From an uncultured Candidatus Peribacteria bacterium (GTDB lineage Bacteria; Patescibacteriota; Gracilibacteria; Peribacterales; Peribacteraceae): DNA of 64,000 bases. Positions 25,395 through 51,836 of this stretch are shown in pieces; positions within the stretch are counted from its first letter, which is position 1; every line of letters starts with the position of its first letter. The position numbers and the translations under genes are program-made. The stretch is taken from positions 12,223 through 76,222 of the forward strand of contig CAYUZT010000006.1 in the NCBI GenBank assembly GCA_964449445.1, written 5' to 3'. Below the pieces are notes generated by a model. That model saw nothing but the letters and a program-made list of their open reading frames with translations, was not told the DNA's origin and searched no databases.

Positions 25395-27089
25395 ATGCAG
25401 CAAACCTGCGCCCACTGCTCAACCCAGTTCACGATCGACCCGCTCGATCTGGACTTCTACGACCGCGTCTCGCCGACCTTCGCAGGAAAAAAATATGCGA
25501 TTCCCGCTCCGAAGCTTTGCTTCCACTGCCGATTGCAGCGGCGGATGTCCTTCTATAACTGCCGCTCGGTCTATAAGAGGACGTGTGATGCGACCAAGAA
25601 ACCCATCGTCTCGATTTTCTCGCCCGATAAACCCTTCACGGTGTACGACAAGAATGTCTGGTTTGGCGACAGTTGGGATCCCAAGAGTTTTGGAGTGGAT
25701 GTCGATTTCACCCGGCCGTTCCTCCCTCAGGTTCGTGAACTCGCTGTGCGCACTCCCATGCTCTGCATCATGCACTTTGGCGAGGAGAACCCCAACAGCG
25801 ATTACACCAACGATAACTACAAGATTAAGAACTGCTATCTGGTCTTTGACGGCGAGCAGGCCGAAGACTGCATGTACGGTCAAACCTACGTGATGAGCCG
25901 CAGCTGTGTGGACTTCTTATTCATTCATCGTTGCGAGCTCTGCTATGGCTGCTGCTACTGCGACGAGTCGTACAATCTGCGATACTGCCGCTTCTGCAAA
26001 AACTGTTCGGACAGCTGGTTTTTACGTGACTGCATCGGCTGCCGCAATTGCTTTGGATGCGCCAATCTCCGCCAGAAGCAATACTGCATTTGGAATCAGC
26101 AGAAAACGAAGCAAGAGTACGACGAGTTCATGAACGTCTTCCGCTCCGACTCCCATGCAGCTGTGCTCGCAATGCGTCAAAAAGCGGAGGAATTCTTCAA
26201 AAATCAGCCTGTTCGCGCAACGCGCGGTGAGCAGAATCAGAACAGCTTCGGTGATAACTTGAACAATTCGAAGAACGCCTACTACTGCTTCGATTGTTTC
26301 GCGCAGGAAGACTGCCGCTACTGCACCAATTGCCTGATGTCGGCCAAAGACACGATGGATATGCACGTGTGGGGTGACGGCTTGGAAGTGTCGTATGACT
26401 GTTGCGTGACCGGAGCGAACAGTCGCAATCTGCTCTTCTGCTACAACGTGAGCCAAGGCTGCAGCGACATCCTCTATTCCCTCTATTGCAGCCAATCCTC
26501 CAAAAACCTCTTCGGATGTGTCGGGCTGCGTCATGCGCAGTATTGCATCCTGAACAAGCAGTACTCGAAGGAAGAGTATGAGCAACTTGCCGCGCGTGTT
26601 GTCGAGCACATGATCAAGAACGGCGAATGGGGCGAATTTTTCGCATCTAAATATGCACTCTTCGGCTATAACGAAACCGTTGCGCAAACATATTTCCCGC
26701 TCACAAAGGAAGAAGCCCACAAGCGCGGCTGGCAGTGGTGTGATTACGAAGCAGCCGTGGAAGCAAAACGCTCGATTCCCGCCCAAAAGCTTCCGGACAG
26801 CACCGCAGATATTCCCGATGACGTCCTCGACTGGGCCCTCGTATGCGAACTGACAGGGAAACCCTTCAAACTCACCAAGCAGGAACTGGAATTCTATCGA
26901 ACGCACAAGCTGCCGCTTCCCCGCCTGCATCCAAACGAACGCCATCGGCAACGGACATTGCTCCGTAATCCCTTTCGGCTATGGGCAAGAATGTGCGGCG
27001 TGTGCGGAAAGGAAATACAAACGTCGTATGCTCCGGAGAGGCCCGAGAGAGTCTTGTGTGAAGCGTGTTACTTGAAGGAAGTGTATTAA
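25395..27089 (+). CDS. Cys-rich double-zinc-ribbon repeat protein, paralog 1 (uncharacterised family)
   Basis: ORF 25362 trimmed to ATG 25395 (MQQTCAHCSTQF), 6 nt after TATACT; C-term CGVCGKEIQTSYAPERPERVLCEACYLKEVY. Confidence 0.9.
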   Translation: MQQTCAHCSTQFTIDPLDLDFYDRVSPTFAGKKYAIPAPKLCFHCRLQRRMSFYNCRSVYKRTCDATKKPIVSIFSPDKPFTVYDKNVWFGDSWDPKSFGVDVDFTRPFLPQVRELAVRTPMLCIMHFGEENPNSDYTNDNYKIKNCYLVFDGEQAEDCMYGQTYVMSRSCVDFLFIHRCELCYGCCYCDESYNLRYCRFCKNCSDSWFLRDCIGCRNCFGCANLRQKQYCIWNQQKTKQEYDEFMNVFRSDSHAAVLAMRQKAEEFFKNQPVRATRGEQNQNSFGDNLNNSKNAYYCFDCFAQEDCRYCTNCLMSAKDTMDMHVWGDGLEVSYDCCVTGANSRNLLFCYNVSQGCSDILYSLYCSQSSKNLFGCVGLRHAQYCILNKQYSKEEYEQLAARVVEHMIKNGEWGEFFASKYALFGYNETVAQTYFPLTKEEAHKRGWQWCDYEAAVEAKRSIPAQKLPDSTADIPDDVLDWALVCELTGKPFKLTKQELEFYRTHKLPLPRLHPNERHRQRTLLRNPFRLWARMCGVCGKEIQTSYAPERPERVLCEACYLKEVY

Positions 27090-27097
27090 CGGGCATT

Positions 27098-27135
27098 CCC
27101 TCTCCCTTAAAAGGGAGAGGGTTAGGGTGAGGGTT
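27098..27135 (+). repeat. Type-1 hairpin element ccctctcccttaaaagggagagggttagggtgagggtt (possible terminator)
   Basis: 9-bp stem, 6-nt loop, 8 nt after paralog-1 stop; inverted near-identical copy at 51941-51978. Confidence 0.85.
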
Positions 27136-49902: not shown

Positions 49903-50168
49903 TGCAATTTTTCGAGGAATTTGCTGATTTTTGCCAACAGAGATGGCAAGCTGCATTCATGAGACTTTGTTATAGAAATAGGCGCATACCACGACATGAG
50001 AGAGCCCCTTCTCAATGGGCAGGTCGATGGGATGCTCTTAAGACTATTGAGATTGATGTCACATCTCCGGTTCCCATCACTGATATCAATGCCACCTCAA
50101 CAAGCTTCAATTGCCTTGCAGATGAACAAGACCTCTATTCTATAGAAGACAAGTGATAGAATTTCCGC

Positions 50169-51836
50169 ATGCGAAAAATCTGTGCAAACTCCTGGTGCAA
50201 AGCGGCATTTGAGATCTTGGAGGATGATCGCGCGATGGCGGCGAAGTTTGATGTGGAGTGGGATCCGAAGCATTGCCCTTCCTGCAGGCACATCTACCGC
50301 GCAATGTTTGCCGCCAACCTGATTCTCCACAGCAGGAAATCCGATCTTTCCGGCAAGTCTCTTCTCTCTATTTTCAGCGAACGAAAGCCGTTTCCCGTGT
50401 ACTCGGTGGACGAGTGGTGGAGTGATAGCTGGGATGGAATGACGTACGGCCAGCCTGTCGATCTTTCCCGTCCATTCTTTCCACAATTCGAAAATCTTTT
50501 TGTGAAAGTTCCCAAAATGGCCACGTTGAATGAAAACAGCGAGAACTGTGATTACAGCTGCAACACCGGCAACACAAAGAATGCGTACTATTGTTTGCGC
50601 GCGTACAGATCCGAGGACATGTACTACTCGGAATCTGTCACCGGATACAACCATGATCTCATCGACTGTCTTAGATGCCAGAAATCCAGCGAATGTTGGG
50701 AGTGTGTGCAGTGCGTGGACTGCCACTACGGCGTGTTTCTGCATCGGTGCTTCGGCACGCGCGACAGCGCCTTCTGTATCGACTGCCGGGGCTGCGACAA
50801 TTGTCTGTTCTGCTCGAATTTGCGCAATACGTCGTACCACGTGGATAACCGTCCTGTTTCCAAAGAGGAATTCACGAAAATCAAAGCGACTGTCCTCGAT
50901 GGGCGCCAGTCCACATTGCTGCAGAATCTGGAAAGAATGAACAATGTACACAAGCGAACGATCTGGCCGAATGTCTTGCAAGTAAATTGCGAAGACTGCC
51001 GGGGTGATCAGTTGCTCAATTGCAAAGCCTGCGTTGAATGCTACGACTGCTGCAATTGTTTCCAGAATCGACAATGTTGGGATCTTTCACCGAGCAAGGA
51101 ATGCGTCAGTTGGATGGAGGTGACCAGAGGTGGCATTGGCGAACTCGTGTTCAACTCCGGCAGCATCGGCGGAGGAAATTACTTCATCCGCATGTGTGCA
51201 AAATGCCGACTGAGCAGTAATCTGACGTACTGCATCGACTGCTACTCCTGCAAAGACTGCTTTGGATGCACGGGACTTCGTAACAAGCAGTTCTGCATTC
51301 TCAATACGCAATACACAAAGGAGGAATACGAAAAAACGGTGCGCGATGTGATCACACACATGAAGAAGACGGCTGAGTGGGGACAATTTTTCCCGGTGGA
51401 CTGCTCCCCTTTTGCATTCAATGAGTCATCAGCAATGACCTACCTCACCCTTTCGAAGGAAGAAGTCCTCTCGCGCGGCTGGCGATGGGAGGATCAACCG
51501 GAACTTTCGCAAGATGGAGAAGAGCATCGTTCAACACTCCCCGACAGTATCGATGAAGTGACCGATGACATCACAACGAAAATTCTCTTCTGCGAACAAA
51601 CAGGACGAAAATTCAAAATCATTCCACAGGAATTGCACTACTACCGGCTTTTCCACTGTCCCCTCCCTCGTCATCATCCCGATGTTCGCATGCGGCGCAG
51701 GCGCGACATGCTCAATCCCTACCGGCTGTGGAAAAGAAAGTGCGCGAAGTGCGCAGCGAACATCGAAACCTCGTTTGCGCCGGACAGGCCGGAGATCGTC
51801 TACTGCGAGCGTTGTTATCTTGAAACAGTCTACTGA
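50169..51836 (+). CDS. Cys-rich double-zinc-ribbon repeat protein, paralog 12 (divergent N-terminus)
   Basis: MRKICANSWCKAAFEI...HCPSCRH; TGATAGAAT extended -10 lies 6 nt before the ATG; ends CERCYLETVY. Confidence 0.85.
   Translation: MRKICANSWCKAAFEILEDDRAMAAKFDVEWDPKHCPSCRHIYRAMFAANLILHSRKSDLSGKSLLSIFSERKPFPVYSVDEWWSDSWDGMTYGQPVDLSRPFFPQFENLFVKVPKMATLNENSENCDYSCNTGNTKNAYYCLRAYRSEDMYYSESVTGYNHDLIDCLRCQKSSECWECVQCVDCHYGVFLHRCFGTRDSAFCIDCRGCDNCLFCSNLRNTSYHVDNRPVSKEEFTKIKATVLDGRQSTLLQNLERMNNVHKRTIWPNVLQVNCEDCRGDQLLNCKACVECYDCCNCFQNRQCWDLSPSKECVSWMEVTRGGIGELVFNSGSIGGGNYFIRMCAKCRLSSNLTYCIDCYSCKDCFGCTGLRNKQFCILNTQYTKEEYEKTVRDVITHMKKTAEWGQFFPVDCSPFAFNESSAMTYLTLSKEEVLSRGWRWEDQPELSQDGEEHRSTLPDSIDEVTDDITTKILFCEQTGRKFKIIPQELHYYRLFHCPLPRHHPDVRMRRRRDMLNPYRLWKRKCAKCAANIETSFAPDRPEIVYCERCYLETVY

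Follow-up and report, generated by a model that had tools for sequence, protein, structure and literature searches.

What does a bacterium gain from a dozen related genes for cysteine-rich proteins set in tandem on its chromosome? The question is raised by a stretch of 64,000 nucleotides, here called the window, from an uncultured Candidatus Peribacteria bacterium (GenBank assembly GCA_964449445.1, contig CAYUZT010000006.1, positions 12,223 to 76,222 of the forward strand). An earlier note, made from the sequence alone, had reported twelve same-strand genes of one family in this window and had proposed a metal-loaded intracellular family under repeated duplication. We found that these genes belong to an ancient multigene family specific to one lineage, the Peribacteria/Peregrinibacteria branch of the candidate phyla radiation (CPR), and we consider below what the family may do.

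Twelve intact genes in tandem

Open reading frame (ORF) listing and translation yielded twelve intact plus-strand genes of 551-566 amino acids (aa) with 35-44 Cys each, which occupy about 20.1 kb, or about 31% of the window, in agreement with the positions, strand, lengths and share of roughly one third reported earlier. The proteins align end to end, as had been claimed, at 34-50% pairwise identity (the top paralogue pair reaching 50%), and the shared motifs that had been quoted all lie within the family consensus. The copies, numbered C01 to C12, are listed here; N1, N2 and C1 are four-Cys sites in the terminal modules, and numbers with the prefix L denote loci.

25395..27089, plus strand: C01, 564 aa, 41 Cys; best orthologue 63% identical (L006), best paralogue 46%
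28022..29722, plus strand: C02, 566 aa, 44 Cys; alone among the window copies in having site C1 complete
32165..33820, plus strand: C03, 551 aa, 42 Cys; site N2 complete (a second CxxC-x17-CxxC), as otherwise only in C10
35803..37482, plus strand: C04, 559 aa, 35 Cys; opens the tightly packed run C04-C10, its stop overlapping the start of C05
37479..39149, plus strand: C05, 556 aa, 41 Cys
39152..40828, plus strand: C06, 558 aa, 35 Cys
40828..42495, plus strand: C07, 555 aa, 39 Cys; reference for residue numbering and for the structural model
42500..44164, plus strand: C08, 554 aa, 39 Cys; 84%-identical orthologue in a Lake Baikal Peribacteria metagenome-assembled genome (MAG; L073)
44218..45873, plus strand: C09, 551 aa, 39 Cys; site N1 retains two of four Cys
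45878..47566, plus strand: C10, 562 aa, 39 Cys; site N2 complete
48223..49902, plus strand: C11, 559 aa, 39 Cys; GTG start
50169..51836, plus strand: C12, 555 aa, 44 Cys; final copy ahead of an ATPase gene

The other eleven copies start with ATG. Cys makes up 6.3-7.9% of residues in the window copies, whose isoelectric points (pI, whole proteins) lie between 6.2 and 7.3; the 41 Cys previously counted in the copy at 37479 were confirmed. A family hidden Markov model run on the window found exactly 12 copies, with no pseudogene fragments or decayed copies in the array gaps. The same array was recovered in three ENA assemblies and one Logan run; as it is present in independent assemblies, it is not an assembly artefact.

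No transmembrane (TM) helix or signal peptide was found in the copies by hydropathy scan, the highest 19-residue Kyte-Doolittle mean being 1.37; residue 5 is already the putative first ligand of the N-terminal zinc ribbon, which leaves no space for a signal peptide. The earlier description of a Cys-rich cytoplasmic family thus holds for solubility and Cys content; it missed the taxon (CPR Peribacteria) and the probable solenoid nature of the Cys-rich middle.

The gene starts deserve comment. Mechanical ORFs of several copies reach further upstream than the starts fitted by family alignment; for C04 the mechanical ORF and the public gene call both begin at 35695 (595 aa), whereas the alignment favours 35803 (559 aa). 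Public calls on an identical contig shorten C11 to 434 aa and C12 to 533 aa (L001 17771-19075 and 19408-21009). The starts given in the earlier note fit the family alignment better. Two minus-strand ORFs in array gaps, 47613-47996 (127 aa) and 34309-34650 (113 aa), have no family match, were seen only in identical contigs and may not be genes.

Modular architecture and two kinds of cysteine

Each protein runs from a zinc ribbon through two modules (M1 and M2) and a segment with EWG and GYNET motifs to a second zinc ribbon ending in CxxC-x17-CxxC. The N-terminal module (residues 1-80 in C07 numbering, used throughout) is homologous to the C-terminal module (465-555) with an hhalign probability of 99.6%, and M1 (125-250) to M2 (270-395) with one of 99.9%; the string LRxKxYCILNKQYxKEEY, said earlier to occur twice per protein, therefore reflects a true internal duplication.

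Cys co-variation was assessed in 221 aligned full-length copies from 76 loci. The terminal modules hold four tetra-Cys sets:

Site N1 (C5/C8/C42/C45): four Cys in 188 copies, none to three in 33
Site N2 (C64/C67/C85/C88): four Cys in 47 copies, at most one in 172, two or three in only 2
Site C1 (C475/C478/C503/C506): four Cys in 53 copies, three in only 3
Site C2 (C525/C528/C546/C549): four Cys in 208 copies, none to three in 13

Within N2, and for the pair C478-C506, the phi of Cys presence was 0.96-0.99, and all-or-none retention of this kind fits real metal sites. The C-terminal finger, C525-x2-C528-x17-C546-x2-C549, has Cys that are 95-98% conserved and matches PF23477 in 73 of 78 members (E<=0.1), with scores below the curated cut-offs (24.4 against 27 bits in Pfam, 21.1 against 36 in NCBIfam). 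Its spacing, confined to the last 35 residues, is that of treble-clef fingers (TIGR04272, PF23477 zf_Tbcl_2 and PF13451 zf_Tbcl), and copies in which N2 is complete have a further finger of this type. The known examples are small proteins of a single domain; in this family the finger makes up about 6% of a multidomain protein of 555 aa. Small CxxC-x17-CxxC proteins of Methanosarcina mazei bind Zn (PMC12704099). From the zinc measured in those proteins together with the all-or-none sets we predict two to four structural Zn per chain. Zinc binding by the terminal modules is well supported, and the all-or-none pattern is consistent, if indirectly, with one Zn per finger.

The Cys of M1 and M2 behave unlike those of the tetra-Cys sites. 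A column of Cys, Ser, Leu or Val recurs every 3 residues at 133-220 and 277-367; the columns are 15-98% Cys, with Ser, Leu, Val and Thr as substitutes, and their Cys co-variation is weak (phi <=0.46), with a preferred lag of 12 residues. The hexad register of the repeat is [DN]-C-x-x-C-x, and in the most regular part, residues 198-221, a 12-residue coil holds as many as four Cys. Most Cys have been lost from M2. At the end of M1 the four final Cys (C211, C214, C217 and C220) are 72-95% conserved and could make up a capping site.

Scans of the copies against Pfam and NCBIfam, and of 78 members against Pfam, gave no Fe-S family match, and no ferredoxin-type CxxCxxCxxxCP motif was present. Of the earlier proposal of a protein loaded with Zn or Fe-S, Zn at the terminal modules is favoured by the all-or-none Cys and the finger spacing, and nothing indicates Fe-S.

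Predicted fold of the central modules

An AlphaFold2 (AF2) model of C07, built from a 78-sequence alignment, had a predicted local distance difference test score (pLDDT) of 88.4 and a predicted template-modelling score of 0.87. It contains a ladder of short strands in M1 (residues 126-236, pLDDT 95-97) with a strand spacing of 6 residues, a less confident M2 (pLDDT 65-80), helices after each M module and a well-defined segment at 402-440 (EWGxFFP...SPFGYNET). Its invariant or nearly invariant non-Cys residues include E403, Y417-N418-E419 and W440. In Foldseek searches against PDB the full model was closest to left-handed hexapeptide helices (E 8e-3, template-modelling score <=0.2), and a model of M1 only (pLDDT 84) to pentapeptide and right-handed helices (E>=0.017); no match reached E<=0.001 for the full model against PDB and BFVD or for the M1-only model against PDB. 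As the two models favour different beta-helix classes, we left the handedness unassigned.

A beta-solenoid fold class for M1 and M2 is supported by the modelling. We read both modules as thin solenoids of 12-residue coils with a Cys/Ser ladder core, and not as a string of obligate metal sites, because the 3-residue spacing and the lag of 12 match the beta-helix pattern of TmAFP, the antifreeze protein of the beetle Tenebrio; every third residue of the coils probably points to the core. In TmAFP (PDB 1EZG) the 12-residue coil TCTxSxNCxxAx has positions 2, 5, 8 and 11 (Cys/Ser/Cys/Ala) directed inward (PMC8038014), and the M modules resemble it, at sequence level, in their 3-residue spacing of Cys, Ser and small residues, lag-12 co-variation and [DN]-C motif. 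However, TmAFP is secreted and disulfide-bonded and has a TxT ice-binding face, whereas the family has neither a TCT motif nor an export signal and is flanked by zinc ribbons; 1EZG was not among the sequence or Foldseek matches listed.

The left-handed hexapeptide proteins that gave the best full-model matches (LpxD, GlmU and gamma-carbonic anhydrase) share the 6-residue strand spacing. They differ in having 18-residue coils and an [LIV]-G-x4 repeat, which the Pfam model recognises as [LIV]-[GAED]-x2-[STAV]-x; the family lacks acyltransferase residues, and none of 78 members matched Pfam Hexapep (E<=0.1). Pentapeptide-repeat proteins have A(D/N)LXX repeats in 20-residue coils, against periodicities of 3, 6 and 12 here; no match to Pfam Pentapeptide was found in 78 members, and the SV2A pentapeptide domain was only a weak Foldseek match (E 0.017). 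By sequence, a full-length profile searched against PDB retrieved only LIM/CRP fingers, marginally and on the last ~35 residues. The M1 profile had a marginal and composition-biased match to the CXXC finger of TET3 (4hp1, E 1.5e-3), and PF02008, the CXXC finger with two CGxCxxC clusters, was matched by one of 78 members (E 0.009); part of M1 may thus instead form CXXC-type zinc clusters.

An old and conserved family confined to one lineage

For ten of the twelve window copies, C07 and C11 being the exceptions, an orthologue elsewhere (56-84% identity) is closer than the best window paralogue (40-50%), which places the duplications before the divergence of these genomes and makes the earlier phrase "under repeated duplication" misleading. 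Synonymous sites are saturated between orthologues (proportion of synonymous differences, pS, 0.77-0.87), so that the nonsynonymous proportion, pN (0.10-0.25), is given against pS in place of dN/dS; it indicates strong purifying selection on the copies. Family-wide entropy is 1.7-2.9 bits in M1, M2 and the linkers and 0.9-1.3 at the termini, yet three of four orthologue pairs show their strongest conservation in M1 (pN 0.07-0.13). Solenoids that vary across paralogues, with M1 conserved between orthologues, suggest paralogue-specific functional surfaces, and the same pattern argues against both an arms-race repertoire and relic copies.

Tandem arrays are usual in the family, with 231 long copies in the 76 loci (each <=22 kb) and up to 8-10 per locus in other genomes. 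The copies of a single MAG, at least 7-9, can be spread over several loci (L009, L042 and L047, for instance, belong to one MAG), and arrays differ in length and order between genomes. These counts leave out L059 (Gracilibacteria ALOHA_ZT_17), L077 (an "uncultured bacterium" bin) and L079 (the Peribacteria-labelled complete genome CP060226.1), in which the family genes appear as strings of 80-390-aa fragments under table 11. We suspect a recoded stop codon in these three, for example that of code 25 (UGA = Gly), which is known from Gracilibacteria. An 808-aa homologue, P0137, has a C-terminal extension; because the extension has no recognisable domain it was rejected as a domain fusion and is probably a read-through.

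Named homologues of the family and of the ATPase beside it came only from MAGs of Candidatus Peribacteria, Peribacteraceae, Peregrinibacteria, "Gracilibacteria" and Abawacabacteria. The family comprises at least 4,493 clusters at 90% identity (E<=1e-5) and at least 5,840 representatives at 50% identity (E<=1e-3), 2,485 of the latter at E<=1e-30, and GTDB species representatives contain at least 583 confirmed stretches. Nearly all best matches listed are 540-600 aa long, and their source names are "hypothetical" or CxxC finger only. The family is essentially absent from IMG/VR viral contigs (one partial match) and INPHARED phage genomes. Full-length matches were found in none of Pfam (local and precomputed newer release), NCBIfam, PADLOC (three copies tested), PDB and BFVD, and in PHROGs only the M module was matched, by phrog_15341 (unknown function; best E 1.5e-10), so that the earlier failure to recognise a characterised full-length family was borne out at the level of both sequence and fold. 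No description of the family turned up in the literature searched. Among the known folds and domains compared, it agrees only in the generic spacing of the terminal finger and, at sequence level, in a TmAFP-like periodicity; we therefore rate it as new in kind, with a structural reading that rests on prediction.

The large secreted Cys-rich proteins of Ca. Peribacter riflensis, from the same lineage and with a similar Cys content of ~7%, average ~1,650 aa, mostly carry signal peptides and are pappalysin/FG-GAP-like (Anantharaman et al. 2016, PMC4736985, Table S4). None is of the 550-aa zinc-ribbon/solenoid type, and identity with that cluster was rejected, it being a different set of proteins.

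Neighbouring genes

Genes within two positions of a family gene were clustered across the 76 loci, and only two families recurred. The commoner, TrmB-like winged helix-turn-helix (HTH) proteins of ~253 aa, had 53 members (48 of them on the opposite strand and 46 immediately adjacent) in 39 of the 76 loci, so that the "dedicated regulators" of the earlier note were confirmed; the account of the neighbours had nevertheless missed the second, a VirD4-like ATPase. The features beside and within the array are:

24841..25224, minus strand: small HTH protein, 127 aa, divergent from C01; weak FUR/HTH_20 matches below cut-off
27149..27916, minus strand: TrmB-like 1, 255 aa, divergent from C02; Pfam TrmB E 1.1e-9; orthologue beside the C02 orthologue in L062
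27920..27951: inverted repeat with 15-nt arms, 80% complementary, abutting the TrmB-like 1 start; candidate operator
29772..30530, minus strand: TrmB-like 2, 252 aa, divergent from the SSF transporter-C03 pair; Pfam TrmB E 3e-13
30531..30556: perfect 26-bp palindrome abutting the TrmB-like 2 start; candidate operator
30609..32147, plus strand: sodium:solute symporter inside the array; Pfam SSF E 8e-24; absent from all other loci
33893..34300, plus strand: DUF2000 protein inside the array, specific to this lineage
34773..35528, minus strand: TrmB-like 3, 251 aa, divergent from the C04-C10 run; Pfam TrmB E 5.6e-9
35534..35626: a 14-nt direct repeat in two copies, together with inverted repeats, abutting the TrmB-like 3 start; candidate operator region
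52103..54346, plus strand: soluble VirD4/TraD-like (FtsK/HerA-class) ATPase, 747 aa; Pfam T4SS-DNA_transf, TrwB_AAD_bind and TraG-D_C

The three window TrmB-like proteins are 22-25% identical to one another, and TrmB-like 3 has strongly conserved orthologues upstream of arrays in many loci. The palindromes and repeats at their starts differ among the three genes, and each probably serves as an operator specific to its paralogue or as an autoregulation site. Downstream of TrmB-like 2 the first gene is that of the symporter, with C03 starting 17 bp after it. The small HTH protein is not conserved, occurring in one other locus only.

The ATPase has no N-terminal TM segment; its NCBIfam match was VirD4-like CD1115, and CedD, a DNA-translocating ATPase, was also matched. 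It was found in 26 loci, downstream on the same strand in 24 and directly adjacent in 22. The paralogue type that abuts it varies, being C12-like in L020, C02-like in L062 and C10-like in L073. Window genes beyond the ATPase recur in none of the 17 other loci with flank there, and almost none of those upstream of the array recur; the adjacency of array and ATPase as a mere conserved synteny block was therefore rejected. Between C12 and the ATPase gene lies a 266-bp gap with a hairpin, and no type IV secretion system (T4SS) channel genes were found in the window. VirD4 homologues are widespread in Patescibacteria, mostly away from virB4, and exaptation has been suggested; the homologue of S. 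epibionticum is not essential for epibiotic growth, and VirB6 is scarce or absent in the class Gracilibacteria (PMC12102498). For the window ATPase PADLOC gave only generic or weak mad8/HerA similarity. The ATPase also matches phrog_5156 (unknown function, E 5.5e-71) and Bacillus phage G gp156 (90% of length, 22.6% identity, E 3e-41), so that this soluble ATPase type is also found in large phages; none of the distant phage homologues co-occurs with the family.

The flanks of the window hold ordinary chromosomal genes (PEPCK, TrpRS, dCTP deaminase, dnaX, tRNA-Val, and mevalonate and glycogen genes), and the complete Peribacteria genomes among the loci are 1.3-1.4 Mb in size. A mevalonate cluster at 3099-10348 encodes a GHMP kinase, diphosphomevalonate decarboxylase, HMG-CoA reductase, an HMG-CoA synthase-like protein and a thiolase, and a glycogen set at 14586-19311 (GT4/GT5 synthase, GH57 and GH15) lies 6 kb upstream of the array; both clusters agree with published Peribacteria metabolism. 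A DsbA/thioredoxin_4-like gene (60075-60665, minus strand) and a DM13-domain gene (59409-59999, plus strand) lie 8 kb downstream of the array, and the pair would matter if the Cys ladder were ever oxidised.

Short repeats were also noted in and around the array. The 11-mer GGTATACTGAC, with one mismatch allowed, occurs 5 times in the window against 0.29 expected (32149-32159, 42486-42496, 44201-44211, 45864-45874 and 48209-48219), and 3-6 nt after the end of each occurrence comes the start codon of a family gene. Two of the occurrences coincide with the codons for ...EVY-stop that end the copy before; the other three have no copy upstream, and one of them comes after the symporter gene. It is also present in intergenic DNA ahead of family genes in L046 and L071. 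This 11-mer, which contains TATACT, may be a -10 box of leaderless or short-leader transcripts, or a conserved duplication junction. An element resembling repetitive extragenic palindromes (REP-like), CCCTCTCCC-loop-GGGAGAGGG followed by (N2)AGGGTGAGGGT, is found at 25294-25319, 27098-27134, 29729-29771, 33827-33865 and 51942-51978, that is, upstream of C01, just past the stops of C01, C02 and C03 and, inverted, between C12 and the ATPase gene, and at no other place in the window (0 expected). The element may serve as a terminator that lacks a U-tract, or it may be a repeat prone to recombination that marks the borders of arrays. Between C01 and the small HTH gene, in the promoter region, three tandem 13-nt units (GTGAGGGCTATGA) at 25336-25385 continue the GGGTGAGGG tail of this element.

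Interpretation

We favour, with a probability of about 40%, a reading in which the family provides specific binders or cargo, produced as a regulated set and coupled to the ATPase. The conserved ends and the EWG/GYNET segment would be a common docking or scaffold part, and each paralogue's solenoid a distinct and stable recognition surface, so that the array as a whole would supply a repertoire of some twelve specific binders. Sub-arrays would be switched on and off by the adjacent TrmB-like regulators through the palindromes at the regulators' own start codons, and the proteins would act with the neighbouring VirD4-like ATPase, either as its cargo or as substrate-selecting adaptors. Effector arrays beside T4SS coupling-protein genes are known from Bartonella, with bep genes beside virD4, and from Xanthomonas, in which the X-Tfe share a VirD4-binding C-terminal domain. 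Those arrays likewise combine tandem paralogues, conserved terminal domains, a variable part and an adjacent VirD4-family ATPase gene; in contrast, the ATPase here has no membrane anchor, channel genes are missing nearby and the copies have no homology to those effectors.

Several observations weigh against a set of binders or cargo coupled to the ATPase. By a strict criterion no more than 16 of 47 loci have the ATPase gene immediately after the last copy and, with several arrays per genome, probably not all of them can adjoin it. At 69-90% identity across Peribacteria and a dN/dS of 0.045 the ATPase is far more conserved than the family, and the wide occurrence of VirD4 and its dispensability in S. 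epibionticum suggest a role that is probably independent of the family. The lack of a TM anchor and of a channel gene in the window means that secretion is not implied, and the hairpin-bearing gap that C12 and the ATPase are probably not co-transcribed. T4SS signals are usually disordered, whereas the family ends in a folded zinc finger. The geometry of the solenoid itself rests on AF2 and sequence periodicity, with no significant Foldseek match.

A more daring reading is that the fold of the solenoid is latched by metal or redox state: it would be reduced and readily unfolded inside the cell and become locked by metal or disulfides at its destination, and the paralogues would be cargo that an exapted soluble VirD4-like ATPase passes to an export route for host interaction. 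It is drawn from the near absence of a hydrophobic core in the solenoid and its up to four thiols per 12-residue coil, from which a linear metal-thiolate chain along the solenoid axis could also be imagined. We consider latched cargo distinctly improbable; if true, it would be the first effector repertoire defined for a CPR lineage. Binding of nucleic acids seems to us unlikely, though to a lesser degree. Basic zinc ribbons would grip DNA or RNA, the solenoid would space them or mimic nucleic acid, and the ATPase would be an FtsK/VirD4/CedD-class DNA translocase to which the copies mark or hand over different substrates. The terminal modules are indeed Arg/Lys-rich treble-clef or zinc-ribbon modules (CPDCRxQRR...RNxR; RNPRKLWxRxC), M1 weakly matches DNA-binding CXXC fingers (TET3, and PF02008 in one member) and the ATPase matches TrwB_AAD_bind and CedD. 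Against this, the whole-protein pI is not basic, all matches to nucleic-acid domains fall under curated cut-offs, the CXXC match being marginal and composition-biased, and the copies have no HTH, OB or nuclease domain.

The remaining alternatives are harder to reconcile with the data. A large tandem array in a genome that is likely small, judging from its complete relatives, array length and order that vary between genomes, REP-like hairpins at array borders that could promote recombination and an ATPase weakly like HerA and mad8 defence ATPases might suggest a fast-evolving immune, decoy or variant repertoire against phages or hosts, with copies generated continually. This is very unlikely, given orthologues closer than any window paralogue for 10 of 12 copies, pN far under saturated pS, M1 most conserved between orthologues, no recent duplicates (top paralogue identity 50%), no PADLOC match and near absence from viral contigs and phage genomes. 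We give as little credence to the idea that the copies are enzymes, with E403, Y417-N418-E419 and W440 as active site, substrate specificity provided by the solenoid and control by sugar regulators of TrmB type: the invariant residues do lie in a well-modelled segment, beta-helices are common in carbohydrate-active enzymes, which figure among the (non-significant) Foldseek matches, TrmB regulators classically control sugar metabolism, and a symporter and a glycogen cluster lie in and 6 kb upstream of the array, but no enzyme family was found by sequence, no cofactor motif was recognised and the symporter occurs in this lineage only. A thiol or metal reservoir, metallothionein- or Csp-like, whose Cys-lined core stores Zn, Cu(I) or Fe, had been proposed earlier and is a poor fit that we hold to be highly improbable. 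The Cys content, with its dense coils at 198-221, and the weakly Fur/ArsR-like regulator upstream of C01 would agree with it, but the solenoid Cys swap freely with Ser, Leu and Val and co-vary weakly, M2 has lost most of its Cys, the solenoids are kept between orthologues, twelve old and individually conserved paralogues with elaborate non-Cys motifs are unlike a bulk store, and the Fur-like neighbour is not conserved in other loci. Hardly credible, finally, is electron transport along the Cys ladder by proteins of an Fe-S or redox type; high Cys content and CxxCxxC strings are all that speaks for it, the motif and family matches expected of Fe-S proteins are missing, and the Cys columns are not conserved as sets.

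Significance

With their tiny genomes, CPR bacteria live in dependence on other cells, yet few of the molecules behind this lifestyle are known. Here a family of thousands of members, confined to Peribacteria and Peregrinibacteria and with paralogues under purifying selection, has gone without a name or a Pfam domain. It is probably a new type of intracellular Cys-ladder solenoid with zinc-ribbon caps, and a caution that high Cys content in these genomes need not mean extracellular adhesins only. The TrmB-like regulators with their distinct palindromes offer a testable regulatory unit, and the arrays beside the ATPase gene may be a clue to the role of the widespread "orphan" VirD4-like ATPases in Patescibacteria.

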